Source: Promethearchaeota archaeon (GTDB lineage: Archaea > Asgardarchaeota > Lokiarchaeia > Sigyniarchaeales > SOKP01). From it: a DNA stretch of 64,000 nt. This document shows, piece after piece, positions 38,816 to 45,642 of this stretch. How positions within the stretch are numbered: the stretch's first letter is position 1; each line of letters begins with the position of its first letter. Position numbers and translations under genes: made by a program. Under the pieces are notes generated by a model. That model worked only from the letters and a program-made list of their open reading frames with translations. It was not told the DNA's origin and did no database searches. The DNA lies in the NCBI GenBank assembly GCA_019058245.1, contig JAHPZJ010000015.1:32001-96000 (forward strand). The letters run 5' to 3'.

Positions 38816-40063
38816 TTGGAAAAACTTCATAAAATTGGATTTTCAAAGTTAGCACCTCTAGAAGATACAATTCAAAAATTACTTATGAAGATTAAAGTAA
38901 ATCCACTTGAGGAAATTGAAATTACTAAAGCATTGAACCGAGTTTTAGCTGAGGATATCATTAGTGAAATAGATATTCCCCCTTTTGATAGATCAGCAAT
39001 GGATGGATATGCAATTAAAGCTGAAGATTCATTTGGAGCATCTCTTAAAAATCCAAAAAAGACCAAACTTATAGGAACGATTGAAATCGGAGAATCTTCT
39101 AATCTTAAAATAAATAAAGATGAAGTTGTTAGAATATCTACCGGTGCTCCAATACCCGAAGGATCTGATGCTGTTATTAAAATTGAAGATACAGAAATTG
39201 AAGAAAATATTGTTACTATTTATAATGCTCTAGCCCCAGGAAAAAATGTGTCAAAAAGAGGGGAGGATATAAAGAAAAACGTATTAGCGTTAAATGCAGG
39301 TATCGAATTAAAAGCTGAACACATTGCACTCTTGACTTCCTTAGGATTTAATAAAGTGAAAGTAATTTCTAAACCAAAAATAAGTGTTTTTTCTTCCGGA
39401 GATGAATTAATTGAACCAGGTACACCACTACAATCTGGTAAAATTTATAATTCTAACAAGCCAATGATATCAGCATTAGTAAATCTATATGGTGGAATCG
39501 TCATTCGTGCAGAAAGCATAAAGGATAATAAAGAATCTATCAAAATTAAATTAATTGAATCTGTAGAAGATTCCCATATGATAATTTTTACGGGAGGTAC
39601 TTCTGTCGGTACTAAAGATTATTTACCTGAGATTATTAATGAAATAGGGACTATAATAACACATGGCGTTGCAATGAGACCTGGATCTCCTGTTTTAATT
39701 GGTTTTTTAAATAAATCTTTAATCTTTTGTCTTCCTGGTAGTCCCGGTGCTGCATATATTTCTTTTCTAAAAATTAGTGGACCTGCCATTAGAAAAATGT
39801 TAGGATGTTCTGTGTTAGATCCTAGAATCGAAATAGTGGCTAGGATTGATAAAGATGTTCCTGTTACGGGTTTAGGCATTTTACATTTTTTAAGAGTAAA
39901 ATTAGAAAAACGTGAGAATGAATTTATAGCAATTCCAGTTAAGTTGAAAGGCTCTGGAGTGATTAGTTCTCTTACGGCATCTGATGGAATAATTGAAATC
40001 CCCCCCAATCAAGAAGGATTAAAAAAGGGAGAACAAGTGATTGTCAGACTTTTTCCAAAATAA
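38816..40063 (+). CDS. moeA: Molybdopterin molybdotransferase (copy 2)
   Basis: PPFDRSAMDGYA, SSGDEL, GGTSVG, MRPG, LPGSP. Confidence 0.92.
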   Translation: MEKLHKIGFSKLAPLEDTIQKLLMKIKVNPLEEIEITKALNRVLAEDIISEIDIPPFDRSAMDGYAIKAEDSFGASLKNPKKTKLIGTIEIGESSNLKINKDEVVRISTGAPIPEGSDAVIKIEDTEIEENIVTIYNALAPGKNVSKRGEDIKKNVLALNAGIELKAEHIALLTSLGFNKVKVISKPKISVFSSGDELIEPGTPLQSGKIYNSNKPMISALVNLYGGIVIRAESIKDNKESIKIKLIESVEDSHMIIFTGGTSVGTKDYLPEIINEIGTIITHGVAMRPGSPVLIGFLNKSLIFCLPGSPGAAYISFLKISGPAIRKMLGCSVLDPRIEIVARIDKDVPVTGLGILHFLRVKLEKRENEFIAIPVKLKGSGVISSLTASDGIIEIPPNQEGLKKGEQVIVRLFPK

Positions 40064-40178: not shown

Positions 40179-40757
40179 TTAGGGTGTGAAACTCTGAACA
40201 AATAAAGTCATATCTGATACTGTATTTAATGCATTTGTTGACGATACACTTAGGGTTACATTGTGGCTTCCTGCCACCATATTATTTATAAAATGCTGTA
40301 GATTTACTGAAAAATAATCTCTTTGTGAGCCACCATTTAAACTGCCAACAACACTTTTAGGATTTAGAATATTTTCTCCATCTACCTTAAAAAAGAAAAA
40401 TGACCGAGAATACCCCGAAATAGGATAGACTTCTGCAACACCTGTAAAAGAAAGATAAATTGAGGAGGATGAGTTTAACTCGAAGGTTACATTTAAAACT
40501 GATAATTCCAGCACTGTTGTAGCAGGAGAAATTGTGAATACATCTTCATACTCACTATACCACGTTTTATTCGGGCTCGAATAAGTCATATTTTCAAGAT
40601 CTTCTAACTCATCTTGTAATAATGTAATTGTATCCTCAAAATTACCTATTGTTTTTTCCATTGTATTCATTGAGTTCCAAGCTATGAAACCAAAAATTAA
40701 TCCTCCTGCACCAATTATTATTCCTATTAAAGCTAAAACAATTGCGCCTTTTCCCAT
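40179..40757 (-). CDS. Membrane-anchored protein: N-terminal TM, short coiled coil, beta-sandwich domain
   Basis: Hydrophobic N-terminus, heptads, beta-rich C-terminus (AGSHNVTL). Confidence 0.55.
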   Translation of the reverse strand: MGKGAIVLALIGIIIGAGGLIFGFIAWNSMNTMEKTIGNFEDTITLLQDELEDLENMTYSSPNKTWYSEYEDVFTISPATTVLELSVLNVTFELNSSSSIYLSFTGVAEVYPISGYSRSFFFFKVDGENILNPKSVVGSLNGGSQRDYFSVNLQHFINNMVAGSHNVTLSVSSTNALNTVSDMTLFVQSFTP

Positions 40758-40955: not shown

Positions 40956-41984
40956 TTAAGATTTATTTTCAGAAGCTTCTTTTTCTTTTAATTGTCTTTC
41001 TAATTCTTTTTTTTCTACTTCAAGTTTTTCGATCTTTCTATCCTTTAACTCGATCTTTAAGCCACTAATTGTAATTCCCTGTAAATTAAGTATCTTTTTA
41101 ATAAATATAAATGTAGCAAAGCAAATTCCAATTAAATATAGAACGTCTACAGACCAAAAATACGGATCTATCGTAATCCAAATCTCTTTTACATAAGGAA
41201 AGCTTAAGAAAGGCAAAATTACAGCAATTAACCCAATCCATATCATTCCAATTAGTAGGAATGCTTTTTCCCATAATCTAATTTGTAATCTATAAAAAAT
41301 ATATAAATGTAACCAATACAAGACACAAATAAATGTAATAGGTGTGAATAAAAATGATCCAATCGCTAAAACTAACAATAGATTAACAGCAAATTTATTA
41401 CGCCATAAATCTAAAATATCTTTAATATCCATTTGATCTTGAACTTGTGCTTTTGCATATTCCTTTCTTAATGAAAAATACTCCCTTTTTATTTTTCTAG
41501 CTATTTTTTTTGCACCTTTCTTCCAGAACGAAAACTTACTTATTTCCGCTGCTTTATGAAATTGTTCACTCGCTAGAGGAATGATATAAAGATTCAGTAA
41601 TAACGAAATTATTCCATAAATATATATTATATTATCAAACCATAACCATAAGCCCGTCTGAGTAACTGCTGCAGATTCTGTATAACTTGAAATAATTTTA
41701 TAAATAGCGTAGGCGATTAAAAGCACTGGAATGATAATTTCCAGTACGATCAAAACAATAGTGCCTCTTTTTGCCAATTTATTACTTAATTTATCCATAA
41801 GTAATAAGAAACCGTTTGAGATACTCAAGACCAAGCCAAAACCAGCTAAAAATTTCACAACCCAAAAAAAGATAAGAAATGTGAAGTTTAAAGATACATC
41901 TCCAGTAAAAAGTAACAAAAACATCAGAGCTAAAGTGATGATAATTCCAATTAAGTAAATTATTTTATATGTTTTTTCCTCCAT
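40956..41984 (-). CDS. Hypothetical multi-pass membrane protein with C-terminal coiled coil
   Basis: About 7 hydrophobic segments, charged tail. Confidence 0.6.
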   Translation of the reverse strand: MEEKTYKIIYLIGIIITLALMFLLLFTGDVSLNFTFLIFFWVVKFLAGFGLVLSISNGFLLLMDKLSNKLAKRGTIVLIVLEIIIPVLLIAYAIYKIISSYTESAAVTQTGLWLWFDNIIYIYGIISLLLNLYIIPLASEQFHKAAEISKFSFWKKGAKKIARKIKREYFSLRKEYAKAQVQDQMDIKDILDLWRNKFAVNLLLVLAIGSFLFTPITFICVLYWLHLYIFYRLQIRLWEKAFLLIGMIWIGLIAVILPFLSFPYVKEIWITIDPYFWSVDVLYLIGICFATFIFIKKILNLQGITISGLKIELKDRKIEKLEVEKKELERQLKEKEASENKS

Positions 41985-42133: not shown

Positions 42134-43006
42134 ATGGTTGATATAACCACAGCAGTAAAAGATATACAAGATAAATATAAAGTAATTGGTAGGACTGAAG
42201 AATTAAAGCAAATTGTTTTAGCACATTCAGTAAATAAAAATATTTTAATAGAAGGAGAAGTGGGAGTCGGTAAAACTAGATTAGCGAAAGCCATTGCAGA
42301 ATATTATGACACTAATTTTTATCGAGTCGATTGTAGCGAAGAATTACTACCTCATAACCTTGTTGGATATTTTGAACCACCATTAGTAATTGCAAAAGGA
42401 TATATTGAAGATTCATACAAAAATGGACCATTAGCTTTAGCTATGATGAATGGGGGTTGCTTATTCATAAATGAAATAAACCGGATGCCAGAAAGCACCC
42501 AAAATTCGTTATTAACATCATTAGACGAAGGAATACTTAAAATACCTAAATTAAAAACCATTATAGCTCATAAAGATTTCTTTGTTATCGCAACTCAAAA
42601 TCCGTCTGCGCATGTTGGAGTCACGGTATTAGGCGAAGCCTTAAAAGATCGATTCATTTGGATAAATTTGGATTATCAAAGATCTGAAGAGGAAATACTA
42701 ATTATCAAACAAGAGTCCAATTTGAACAGCGGTAATGCTGATAAAATTGCTGCACTTTCACAACAAGTCATCCAAATAACAAGAGAAAATACTTCTATCC
42801 GGAGAGGGAGTTCAATAAGAGGAGCTATTGATTTAGCTACCTTAATTAATCAATATGGTAATAGTAATAGTACTAAAAATTGGGTTGAAGCTGCTATAAT
42901 GGCACTATATAATAAAATTGAACTTGAAGATGGACTAACTCAATCAAAAAAGGAGATAATTACTAATATTGTACTAGCTGTATTGAATAAATCGGATTTT
43001 CAATAA
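42134..43006 (+). CDS. MoxR family AAA+ ATPase
   Basis: GEVGVGKT, FINEINR, ATQNP, ALKDRF. Confidence 0.9.
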   Translation: MVDITTAVKDIQDKYKVIGRTEELKQIVLAHSVNKNILIEGEVGVGKTRLAKAIAEYYDTNFYRVDCSEELLPHNLVGYFEPPLVIAKGYIEDSYKNGPLALAMMNGGCLFINEINRMPESTQNSLLTSLDEGILKIPKLKTIIAHKDFFVIATQNPSAHVGVTVLGEALKDRFIWINLDYQRSEEEILIIKQESNLNSGNADKIAALSQQVIQITRENTSIRRGSSIRGAIDLATLINQYGNSNSTKNWVEAAIMALYNKIELEDGLTQSKKEIITNIVLAVLNKSDFQ

Positions 43007-44115
43007 TCGATGATTTCTCTGAGGAAGTATCTGAAGAGATTGAGAAAAGACTGCATGTTAGACTAACCGAAAGTAAACCAGATAAAGAAATTTTAGAGTA
43101 TGAAATAATCCGTAAAAAAAGAAAAAAACCAGATTATTATAAACATCTTGCAAACACACTAGATTACAAACAAATCAAAGAATTAACATATCTTGCTATA
43201 AAACATAAAAATCTTGAAGCTCTTATGGGCTTATTAAAAGCGAACGTATATGCTTCAACAGATGCTTTAGACACTGAAGAAGGAGTACAATTTTTTTCAG
43301 AAAAAGCTGCTGAATCAGGTGATTTTATGCCAGAAGTCTATTTTTTTATTAGACGTCCGATATCAGAAAAATATAAATCAGTTTTTAGAAGATTAGCACG
43401 TCAAAGTATTTTAAAATTATCTTTAAAAATTACAAGCAGAGGAATAAGAGGTCAATTTAAAAAGACAGTTCCTTATTATCAAATGGGTATGCCTGAATTT
43501 AGCATGGATGAAACTATTCAACATAATCCGTTAAAAATTTATGAAAGAAATTTAAATTATCAAGATATATATGGAATTGAAAGAAAACGACAAAAAAGAA
43601 AAGTAGTATTGCTATTGGATACAAGTGGTAGTATGTATGGACGTTTGTTGCTTAATGCCGCACTTACAACATCAGTTTTAGCATATAACATGGAAAAAGA
43701 AGACTTTTCTATAGTTTTATTTAATTCAACTGCAATGGTCATGAAAAAAATCAATAAAAAAAGACCTATTATTTCAATAATTGATGATATTTTAGATTCT
43801 GAAGCTGTTGGCTTTACAAATATCTATATAGGATTGGAAAAAGGTCTGAAAGAATTAAGAAAAATAAGAGAAAATAGAAAAAGTCGTTTTGGTATATTAA
43901 TAACAGATGGTATTTACAATCGCGGTGAAGATCCCGTAATCCTAGCAAAAAAATATCCAAAATTACATGTTATAGGAATGCCTGCTGATAATGATGCGGA
44001 TCAAGGTATTGAGAAATGTAAAGAAATCGCTAAGGCAGGTAGGGGTAAGTTTTATGCCGTAAATGATTATAAAGAAATCCCAAGAGCTCTGATAGAACTA
44101 TTATCTCAAACTTAA
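43003..44115 (+). CDS. VWA domain protein (CoxE/ChlD-like); no canonical start before 43225 although the frame is open from 42991
   Basis: MIDAS DTSGSM, T (GFTN), ITDG; 74 extra in-frame codons (IIDDFSEEVSEEIEKR...). Confidence 0.85.
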   Translation: MIDDFSEEVSEEIEKRLHVRLTESKPDKEILEYEIIRKKRKKPDYYKHLANTLDYKQIKELTYLAIKHKNLEALMGLLKANVYASTDALDTEEGVQFFSEKAAESGDFMPEVYFFIRRPISEKYKSVFRRLARQSILKLSLKITSRGIRGQFKKTVPYYQMGMPEFSMDETIQHNPLKIYERNLNYQDIYGIERKRQKRKVVLLLDTSGSMYGRLLLNAALTTSVLAYNMEKEDFSIVLFNSTAMVMKKINKKRPIISIIDDILDSEAVGFTNIYIGLEKGLKELRKIRENRKSRFGILITDGIYNRGEDPVILAKKYPKLHVIGMPADNDADQGIEKCKEIAKAGRGKFYAVNDYKEIPRALIELLSQT

Positions 44116-44295
44116 GTTTGAATTTATAATCATATTTTCCATAAAGATATTCTTTTACACTTTTTAATAATGAAAAAGTCTTTAAAAGTAATAATTTATT
44201 AGATCTATAATTAAAATATATCTTAATTATTTAAGATTATATCACTTTTGAAAATACTCAGATAAATTATCAATATTTTTTATGGTGAACCTTTC

Positions 44296-44877
44296 ATATT
44301 TGAAGAAGATAATGGCTATAAATATATTTTTAAAGTAGTTTTAATCGGAGCAGGTGGAGTTGGAAAAACATGTATTGTTCGAAGATTATGTTATGATACG
44401 TTTACTCTGAATACTCAATTAACTGTTGGAATAGATTTTTATACATATAATTTACCGATAATAGTTGATGGTCAACAATCCAATGTAAGACTTTCAATAT
44501 GGGATTTTGGGGGACAAGCTCACTTTAAGACTCTTTTTGACTATTATATTAAGGGAGCAAATGGAATATTTTTAGTCTTTGATTTATTAAAAATGCAAAG
44601 TCTTCTTGATTTAGACTGGTGGTATGATAAGTTAATAGAAAATGCTATGATCAATCAACCTAAAATTCTTATTGGAACTAAACTTGATCTGGTAAATCAA
44701 GTGGAGCCTGGATTTGTAATTGATGAGTTATTTATTAATGAATTCATTGAAAAACATAACGAGCATGAAATCATTAAAACATCATCTAAAGATAATGTTA
44801 ACATTCGAAAAATTTTTAAAGAGATGGTTAAAAAACTATTAGATTTTCAAGAGTTTGACTATGAAAGATTACTTTAA
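44296..44877 (+). CDS. Rab-like small GTPase (copy 1), no canonical start codon
   Basis: In-frame upstream of the track ORF: YKYIFKVVLIGAGGVGKT...TVGIDF...WDFGGQ...GTKLD...TSSK; frame open from 44266, start position is a guess. Confidence 0.85.
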   Translation: MFEEDNGYKYIFKVVLIGAGGVGKTCIVRRLCYDTFTLNTQLTVGIDFYTYNLPIIVDGQQSNVRLSIWDFGGQAHFKTLFDYYIKGANGIFLVFDLLKMQSLLDLDWWYDKLIENAMINQPKILIGTKLDLVNQVEPGFVIDELFINEFIEKHNEHEIIKTSSKDNVNIRKIFKEMVKKLLDFQEFDYERLL

Positions 44878-45057: not shown

Positions 45058-45642
45058 ATGATAACAAATAATAGGATAGACGATGATCCACGCTATATTT
45101 TCAAGATTTGCCTCATCGGAGATGGGGGCGTCGGAAAAACTTGCATAGCAAGAAGATTATGTTTTAATACTTTTAGTGTACATACCCAATTAACCGTAGG
45201 AATTGATTTTTATACTTATGATATCCCGATTTTCATTAGAGGAGAAGAAACTTTTTTAAGACTCTCGATATGGGATTTTGGAGGACAAGAACAATTCCGA
45301 ACACTATTCAAATATTATATCAATGGAGCAAATGGGATTTTTTTAGTTTTTGATTTAGTGAGAATGGAATCACTTGTAAAACTGGATTGGTGGTATGATA
45401 AGATAATCCAGCATGGTCTTCAATATAGTCCAAAGATTCTTGTTGGTACAAAACTCGACTTAGCTCAAGATGAAAAGCAATATAAGGTAGATAGAATTAT
45501 TGTTGAACAATTCCTTAAAAAACATGATGAAAGAGATTATGTAGAAACTTCCTCTAAAGATAACGTGAATATTCGAGATAGTTTTATAAAGATTGTTAAA
45601 ATAATTCTAAATTCTCATAGTTTTGAATATGATGAATTATGA
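45058..45642 (+). CDS. Rab-like small GTPase (copy 2)
   Basis: GDGGVGKT, TVGIDF, WDFGGQE, GTKLD, ETSSK. Confidence 0.92.
   Translation: MITNNRIDDDPRYIFKICLIGDGGVGKTCIARRLCFNTFSVHTQLTVGIDFYTYDIPIFIRGEETFLRLSIWDFGGQEQFRTLFKYYINGANGIFLVFDLVRMESLVKLDWWYDKIIQHGLQYSPKILVGTKLDLAQDEKQYKVDRIIVEQFLKKHDERDYVETSSKDNVNIRDSFIKIVKIILNSHSFEYDEL

Follow-up and report, generated by a model that had tools for sequence, protein, structure and literature searches.

In the 64,000-nucleotide (nt) stretch of DNA analyzed in this study, referred to as the window, which is part of contig JAHPZJ010000015.1 from a Promethearchaeota archaeon (an Asgard archaeon), positions 42134 to 44115 carry two overlapping open reading frames (ORFs). 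The first encodes an AAA+ ATPase, and the second, lying in the −1 frame relative to the first, encodes a protein ending in a VWA domain with a MIDAS (metal ion-dependent adhesion site). A preliminary description of this DNA had proposed that the two are joined by a programmed −1 ribosomal frameshift, and its coordinates, the heptamer, the −1 phase, the missing start codon and the predicted junction peptide were all found to be correct when the sequence was read again. Comparison of this junction with its orthologs points the same way: the AAA+ ORF and the VWA ORF very probably constitute one recoded gene, expressed via programmed −1 frameshifting. The features of the locus are as follows.

42134 to 43006, forward strand: AAA+ ATPase ORF in the zero frame, 290 amino acids (aa), MoxR class (AAA_5/AAA_3), the proposed short product
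42991 to 44115, forward strand: −1 open frame for linker, helical domain and VWA domain; 374 codons, terminated by TAA and preceded by a TAA at 42988-42990
42994 to 43000, forward strand: slippery heptamer G_GAU_UUU, candidate −1 shift site, at which tRNA-Phe would re-pair UUU to UUU
42997 to 43068, forward strand: acidic variable linker, the first 24 residues past the shift; the RNA element sits inside the linker codons
43001 to 43008, forward strand: spacer of 8 nt, CAAUAAUC, separating the heptamer from the first conserved GA
43004 to 43006, forward strand: zero-frame stop TAA, one codon past the heptamer
43007 to 43045, forward strand: conserved RNA element past the slip site, recognized by synonymous-site conservation; candidate frameshift stimulator, possibly a kink-turn
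43081 to 43425, forward strand: conserved alpha-helical domain, model residues 29-143, beginning 48 codons upstream of the first ATG
43225 to 43227, forward strand: ATG at codon 79, the earliest in-frame one of the −1 frame, judged not to be a real start
43564 to 44112, forward strand: VWA (MIDAS) domain, with the DxSGS motif at 43618-43632

The AAA+ ORF ends with AAA TCG GAT TTT CAA TAA, and directly past the slip site the −1 frame reads into an acidic stretch, SIIDDFSEEVSEEIEKR. ATG, GTG and TTG are absent from the first 78 codons of the −1 frame, that is, before position 43225. The predicted fusion would comprise 289 + 371 = 660 aa with the junction ...NKSDF-SIIDDFSEE..., and its predicted junction-spanning peptide is SDFSIIDDFSEE. 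A start-free run of 78 codons is, by itself, not very improbable in an AT-rich genome; the layout goes beyond chance because it is conserved across relatives.

This conservation was examined by a six-frame search with the whole −1 read, using E ≤ 1e-25 at the phylum level (400 genomes). An ortholog was present in 40 of 41 relatives, with the match covering residues 1-374 in 23 genomes of the same genus, and in 256 of the 400 genomes of the phylum; among the matches listed, every open frame was at most 397 aa long. Of the 97 loci that were fetched, and in which both ORFs were placed by tblastn, one had no ATPase, being at a contig end, and the remaining 96 were compared. The VWA frame is −1 in 88 of these 96 orthologous junctions, which come from 20 of the numbered families in the sample. 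Public members of the protein family are labelled Hod-, Odin-, Njord- and Borrarchaeia or "Asgard group", and one protein cluster mixes "Korarchaeota" and Njordarchaeia names, although these are labels only. All 88 loci in the −1 phase have an A-site re-pairing site 0-2 codons ahead of the ATPase stop (5 codons in one locus). The −1 frameshift favored in the preliminary description is thus strengthened by the retention of both the heptamer and the −1 phase in 88 of the 96 junctions. Two same-family genomes (G186:C95 and G188:C68) have one in-frame TGA inside the VWA match, for which a sequencing error, a pseudogene or recoding are all possible.

The shift site varies between families in a restricted manner. 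In the window's family, G_GAT_TTT or A_GAT_TTT was found in 44 of 44 loci. The sites of the other families are A_AAT_TTT (nine loci), G_GAT_TTT (nine), T_TTT_TTA (six), T_TTT_TTC (four), T_TTT_TTT, G_GGT_TTT and A_AAT_TTC (two each), plus a few others, and a canonical X_XXY_YYZ heptamer is selected in 27 of the 41 loci outside the window's family. The codon preceding TTT specifies D, N, H, L, G or R, and its third base is T throughout. As the amino acid varies while the third base does not, the constraint acts on the nucleotides rather than on the peptide. The sole locus without a TTT codon, L057, carries the canonical A_AAC_CCT at the same place. Judged from these alignments, the recoding layout is conserved and under selection.

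The T-runs themselves could be taken to indicate transcriptional slippage, in which RNA polymerase adds or drops a U within the run so that part of the mRNAs encode the fusion in one frame. Some lineages do have runs of T6 to T8, and slippage of this type would yield the same two products. However, the window's family has T4 only, compared with A > 7 and T > 8 for runs that slip (PMC3711429), L057 has no T-run, and the heptamer phase together with the 8-nt spacing to a hairpin (described below) fits ribosomal slippage instead. We consider transcriptional slippage to be very unlikely.

Several lines of evidence indicate that the start-less N-terminal part of the VWA frame is coding. The first ATG, GTG or TTG of the −1 frame lies anywhere from codon 1 to codon 218 in the orthologs (codon 113 in L014 and L047, codon 218 in L050), and no start codon is conserved among them, which answers in the affirmative the question raised earlier as to whether the missing start is shared. 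In a comparison of 37 species of the genus, the diversity of codons 8-78 was 0.132/0.049/0.373 at codon positions 1/2/3, and that of the rest of the protein was 0.114/0.066/0.398. The codon position with high diversity changes from that of the zero frame to that of the −1 frame exactly at the heptamer. Judging from these values, purifying selection on codons 8-78 equals that on the remainder of the VWA protein. In a cross-family alignment of 49 proteins, I37, N72 and A75 are invariant, and all three precede the window's first methionine (residue 77 there); the linker stretch is not conserved as protein across families in the same alignment. An AlphaFold2 model of the −1 product had a mean predicted local distance difference test score (pLDDT) of 84.8, with residues 1-24 disordered (pLDDT below 50), a helical domain at residues 29-143 (block pLDDT 86-94), and then the VWA domain with its DxSGS motif. 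The −1 frame is therefore open from the shift site, coding, and without a conserved start of its own, as expected for a frameshifted gene.

These results bear directly on the simplest alternative, namely that there are two ordinary genes, with the VWA protein starting at the ATG at 43225 (296 aa) and with an upstream frame that does not code or is the remnant of a decaying sequence, a pseudogene or a product of misassembly. Gene callers treat the locus in this way, and the internal position at which the public orthologs start is not constant; P0002 (289 aa) and MHA1727990.1 (358 aa) are examples. However, a start at 43225 would remove the invariant residues and the four confidently predicted helices that lie upstream of it. 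The selection acting on codons 8-78 is likewise at odds with a non-coding upstream frame, as are first starts as far downstream as those in L014, L047 and L050, and the layout recurs in about 90 independent assemblies, complete chromosomes included. Two independent genes therefore seem extremely unlikely, even less likely than transcriptional slippage.

Past the slip site, the window's family shows signs of a constraint at the RNA level. Across 40 distinct sequences, the synonymous sites of ATC GAT GAT TTC and of two GAG codons are invariant. Third-position diversity within the genus is 0.0 over 8 junction codons, 0.16-0.27 for about 20 codons, and 0.37-0.5 elsewhere. The proposed fold of this element consists, in order, of UC-GAUGA-UU, a helix of 5 bp (UCUCU/AGAGA), an internal GA/GA loop, a tetraloop-capped helix of 3 bp, and UUGAGA; it also pairs C43008 with G43044 and U43007 with A43045. 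In this fold, 95% of the cells are paired and three pairs have a compensatory change. Of the 44 loci of the window's family, 42 have a GA at +8 from the heptamer. A search of Rfam returned only two matches at chance level (E ~0.5) and no known RNA family. A strong hairpin in the window itself is not supported thermodynamically, as its fold is no better than that of shuffled sequences; the earlier statement that no strong 3′ structure is visible holds for the window sequence alone.

In the other families, a hairpin is seen more clearly. There, 18 of 31 junction GATGA motifs, located just past the stop, close a GA-initiated hairpin of at least 5 bp, against a background of 10 among 203 GATGA motifs taken as controls from other parts of these genes (Fisher p = 4e-12, with lineages that are not independent). 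The stems are 5-10 bp long with a purine-rich 5′ strand. Their sequences and base-pair types differ between lineages, and the peptides encoded by the hairpin region are wholly different. All 18 hairpin loci have a distance of exactly 8 nt from the end of the heptamer to the GA (10 nt to the first pair), while the distance from the stop to the GA is −1, 2 or 5. Since the former is constant while the stop shifts, the spacing is held to the heptamer and not to the stop. When fold energies were scanned with one fixed 45-nt window per locus, the junction was among the lowest 5% of windows of its own gene in 34% of loci, with a mean z of about −1.5. In the window's family, the GAUGA is on the 5′ strand, a topology different from that of the hairpin in other families.

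Archaeal L7Ae binds RNAs in which a hairpin is flanked by GA on one side and GAU-GA on the other. The hairpin located 8 nt past the heptamer might accordingly be a kink-turn, in which case slippage may need bound L7Ae or a paralogue; we put this forward tentatively and think it rather doubtful. In the kink-turn consensus, a canonical stem with a closing C-G pair is joined through a 3-nt bulge and tandem sheared G.A/A.G pairs to a non-canonical stem. The pattern NC-GA-[hairpin]-GAU-GA-NC, which resembles this consensus, fits the 18 loci, and among the 17 distinct hairpins the commonest closing pair is G-C, with 11. About 9 of the 18 loci (including L052, L060-L063, L065 and L071) also have three or more pairs in an outer flanking helix, which L050, L051 and L048 lack; this short outer helix often overlaps the stop codon in hairpin-bearing lineages. 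In judging the pattern, it should be kept in mind that these genes in any case use GAU for most Asp residues (74%). If L7Ae is indeed needed, the ratio of the ATPase to the ATPase-VWA protein would be tied to free L7Ae, and the junction would be a protein-dependent cellular −1 frameshift signal. Our literature search found no report of such a signal of the L7Ae or kink-turn kind. The ATG within the conserved GATGA was also considered as a start codon and rejected: its frame is that of the ATPase, and the ORFs beginning with it are short (2-63 codons) and unconserved.

Relatives in which the two parts are encoded in a single frame do exist. An exhaustive profile-free search yielded many relatives of 560-710 aa whose C-terminal half matches the VWA read, and the eight fused relatives that were scanned all have an N-terminal AAA_5/AAA_3 domain and a C-terminal VWA domain. 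In P0027 (621 aa), the ATPase part shows 49% identity to the window ATPase (residues 4-285, E 2e-88), and the same frame runs on (...VLK DY SKRS...) into a VWA part that is 37% identical to that of the window. P0114 is a 636-aa fusion labelled Candidatus Borrarchaeum, and two loci are fused in DNA, L075 (G290, an open frame of 732 aa) and L076 (G159, 588 aa). With P0027, P0114, L075 and L076, the naturally fused orthologs suggested as a check in the preliminary description have been found.

The two loci fused in DNA belong to a group of eight of the 96, from four distant families, that are not in the −1 phase; the other six are in the +1 phase. The single-ORF fusions occur in families f24 and f21, which also hold split versions in the +1 phase, and this suggests repeated switching between the fused and the split or recoded states. 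The six +1 loci share TTT TTT CGN near the end of the ATPase, which made a +1 frameshift at this motif a candidate. The candidate was discarded: TTT TTT CGT is likewise present in the fused L075, where it encodes FFR, and CGN is not a rare codon there, so that the motif is explained as a feature of the protein. In the +1 and fused lineages, which lack the −1 cassette, the arrangement is resolved differently at the edges of the family, and this has no bearing on the window. The pattern that had been named as speaking against frameshifting, a variable phase or a start near the overlap, is thus seen in six loci of four distant families, all without the −1 cassette.

With respect to the nature of the two parts, the gene behind the MoxR-type AAA+ gene is on the same strand, and its protein has a VWA domain at the C-terminus with an intact MIDAS. 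Pfam places the ATPase in AAA_3 (9.7e-21) and AAA_5 (3.9e-20), and its best NCBIfam model is GvpN, with 77.8 bits, under the cut-off of that model. Chelatase models score far lower: TIGR02031 (BchD-ChlD) gave 22 bits (cut-off 499.55), TIGR02442 gave 24 bits (cut-off 779.45), and Pfam Mg_chelatase gave only 2.1e-06, with no single stretch passing alone. The PDB sequence matches of the ATPase include midasin AAA domains, the MoxR-like 2r44, NorQ and CbbQ. The top matches (for 42134-43003) are eukaryotic midasin AAA domains, with E 1.7e-37 over two stretches; a special kinship with midasin was rejected, as the 132-bit score sums two AAA stretches and is, per domain, about that of the bacterial MoxR-like 2r44 (65 bits). 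The −1 ORF matches VWA/VWA_2 in Pfam, the VWA match spanning residues 205-364, and the MIDAS residues D208, S210, G211 and S212 are invariant in the cross-family alignment. By Foldseek, the structures nearest to the VWA model are BatB, NorD (in the NorQD complex, 9qhd_G) and the MIDAS domain of Rea1/MDN1. In the flanks, which were 1.5 kb for most loci, no neighbor gene common to the families was found, so that no client or partner gene is proposed; neither was a chelatase large subunit (ChlH/CobN) or another link to tetrapyrroles present in these flanks, although whole genomes were not searched for CobN or ChlH.

Several observations weigh against programmed −1 frameshifting. First, the VWA frame is +1 in L085, L086 and L089 (f18), L077 (f21), L074 (f24) and L073 (f32); in the three f18 loci, a TTG immediately past a stop opens this frame, and in L073 an ATG is located 9 nt past the ATPase stop. 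Second, seven loci with TTT TGA have a TTGA overlap, in which the −1 frame reads TTG-A and might provide a coupled start. Third, G_GAU_UUU is non-canonical in the P site. Fourth, the window's hairpin is weak, as the 60 nt past the heptamer fold with −8.6 kcal/mol (z = +0.37 versus shuffles), and covariation in the window's family is modest, with 13 of 500 shuffles reaching its score. Finally, the compared lineages are related, so that the counts and p-values given above overstate independence.

The first two of these observations would also be consistent with termination-reinitiation or a coupled start, in which the ATPase ends at the TAA and the VWA protein restarts at the ATA at 43003 or the ATC at 43006, giving separate proteins. 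The stop is always 0-2 codons from the start of the −1 reading, the ATA is invariant in the window's family, and a neighboring GTPase frame likewise lacks a canonical start. However, the ATA is forced by the overlapping stop, so that its conservation is uninformative. Outside the window's family, the homologous codon is CTA or TTA, two changes from ATG, and the ATA alternative of the preliminary description fails there. No start or near-cognate codon is conserved at the upstream stop, the TTGA overlap being confined to the seven TTT TGA loci. Moreover, reinitiation leaves unexplained the conserved heptamers, the A_AAC_CCT substitute in L057 and the base before TTT that is always T; the 8-nt spacing is counted from the heptamer and not from the stop; and the natural fusions show that the covalent product is viable. 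Reinitiation is, in our estimation, improbable, although less so than transcriptional slippage or two separate genes.

According to the frameshift model, most ribosomes would translate positions 42134-43006 and terminate at the TAA, producing the 290-aa MoxR-class ATPase. A fraction would slip back by one base on G_GAU_UUU, where the A-site tRNA-Phe would re-pair with UUU while the P-site tRNA-Asp would re-pair poorly. The shifted ribosomes would then read the −1 frame to 44112, producing a 660-aa protein with the ATPase, the acidic linker, the helical domain and the VWA/MIDAS domain. The signal would consist of the heptamer, the stop 0-2 codons behind it, the 8-nt spacer and the RNA element within the linker codons. 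From the sequence, we infer that both products are made at a set ratio. A low frameshift rate could place about one VWA-bearing subunit in each ATPase ring, and this may be the purpose of the arrangement. It is comparable to NorQ-NorD, which has six ATPase chains per VWA protein: the solved NorQ entries contain 24 NorQ chains in 4 entries, with NorD as chain G, which amounts to six NorQ chains per NorD chain.

The closest known precedent is the frameshifted chlD gene of chelatases, for which 10-63% frameshifting was measured in reporters (PMC3711429, Antonov et al. 2013). As in frameshifted chlD (PMC3711429; PMC9227772, Kuznetsov et al. 2022; PMC5009743), one locus would give a short AAA+ protein and a long AAA+-linker-VWA protein, with the shift at the end of the AAA+ part, so that the architecture is the same. 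In both cases the locus is annotated as two genes and single-ORF fused relatives exist. Frameshifted chlD is also found in archaea (Methanocaldococcus, Methanococcus). The two differ, however, in the ATPase, which here is of the MoxR/AAA_5 class (with GvpN, NorQ and CbbQ as the best matches) and not of the chelatase family; in the genomic context, which offers no link to a chelatase in the flanks covered; in the site, which is the U-rich N_NNU_UUY here and the A-rich A_AAA_AAR in frameshifted chlD; in the stimulator, which here is a GA...GAUGA-flanked hairpin at a fixed 8 nt; and in the host group, the Asgard archaea. As regards the extension of the chlD logic to MoxR made in the preliminary description, frameshifted chlD is documented (PMC3711429, PMC9227772) and the ATPase does fall in the MoxR/AAA_5 class.

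The signal itself resembles that of Pea enation mosaic virus 2, an umbravirus whose mapped −1 site is G_GAU_UUU_UGG_UAG (PMC4737148; PMC5009743), with the identical heptamer, one sense codon and then a stop. Changing this stop to a sense codon drastically affects frameshifting in the virus (PMC5009743). Unlike the Asgard locus, this is a plant RNA virus that uses eukaryotic ribosomes and has long-range and multi-hairpin stimulators, and the resemblance is one of signal only, not of homology. In terms of the proteins, the locus shares the ATPase class and the VWA/MIDAS partner with NorQ-NorD and CbbQ-CbbO, in which a MoxR AAA+ hexamer works with a VWA adaptor (PDB 9qhd, 9qh6, 6l1q; PMC9976466). 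Those systems, in contrast, consist of two separately initiated genes, and the N-terminal part of their VWA proteins is much larger. The order of an AAA_5-type ATPase, an acidic linker and a MIDAS domain is also that of midasin/Rea1, which, unlike the Asgard locus, carries its six AAA domains on a single chain and is made without a frameshift.

Ordinary pairs of the NorQ/NorD or CbbQ/CbbO type coexist with the locus. The same genomes hold one or two paralogous MoxR-type ATPase genes of 313-325 aa (L031, 82-3516; L032, 39-3673), and the VWA proteins behind these paralogous ATPases are 829-873 aa long with a TTG start of their own. ORFs of 833-880 aa in the same genomes were at one point candidates for fused paralogues; they are actually two-gene pairs, the VWA protein having its own TTG start.

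Few conserved −1 frameshifts are known from cellular genes of archaea, and a review names the chelatase, virus tail genes and a possible Sulfolobus case (PMC5009743). Full-text literature searches (Asgard with ribosomal frameshifting; MoxR and VWA with frameshifting) found no description of the present junction. If the reading proposed here is correct, its implications are that: a −1 cassette is kept across most of the sampled families of the Asgard archaea, the closest prokaryotic relatives of eukaryotes, with heptamers like those of eukaryotic viruses (U_UUU_UUA, or G_GAU_UUU with a stop behind it); the logic of making a short AAA+ and a long AAA+-VWA protein from one gene is carried from the chelatases to the MoxR/NorQ class, which points to a general way of setting the stoichiometry between a ring and its adaptor; and hundreds of Asgard genome annotations give the VWA gene arbitrary truncated starts, for which we advise a merge into one recoded gene. 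The cassette is short and defined, making archaeal frameshifting directly testable with reporters.

The neighbors of the ATPase-VWA locus in the window are a MoeA-like gene, membrane proteins and small GTPases. The ORF for the MoeA-like molybdopterin molybdenumtransferase (38816-40063, 415 aa, TTG start) lies upstream, and between it and the ATPase is a divergently oriented pair of membrane protein genes (40179-40757 and 40956-41984). At 44266-44877, the frame of a Rab-like small GTPase has an intact P-loop (GAGGVGKT) with no ATG, GTG or TTG ahead of it; its first ATG is at 44593, and an ATG at 44282 is out of frame. Similarity between this frame and its paralogue at 45058-45642 reaches upstream (EEDNGYKYIFKVVLIG versus DDDPRYIFKICLIG), and the start of the GTPase at 44266-44877 is therefore non-canonical or lost.

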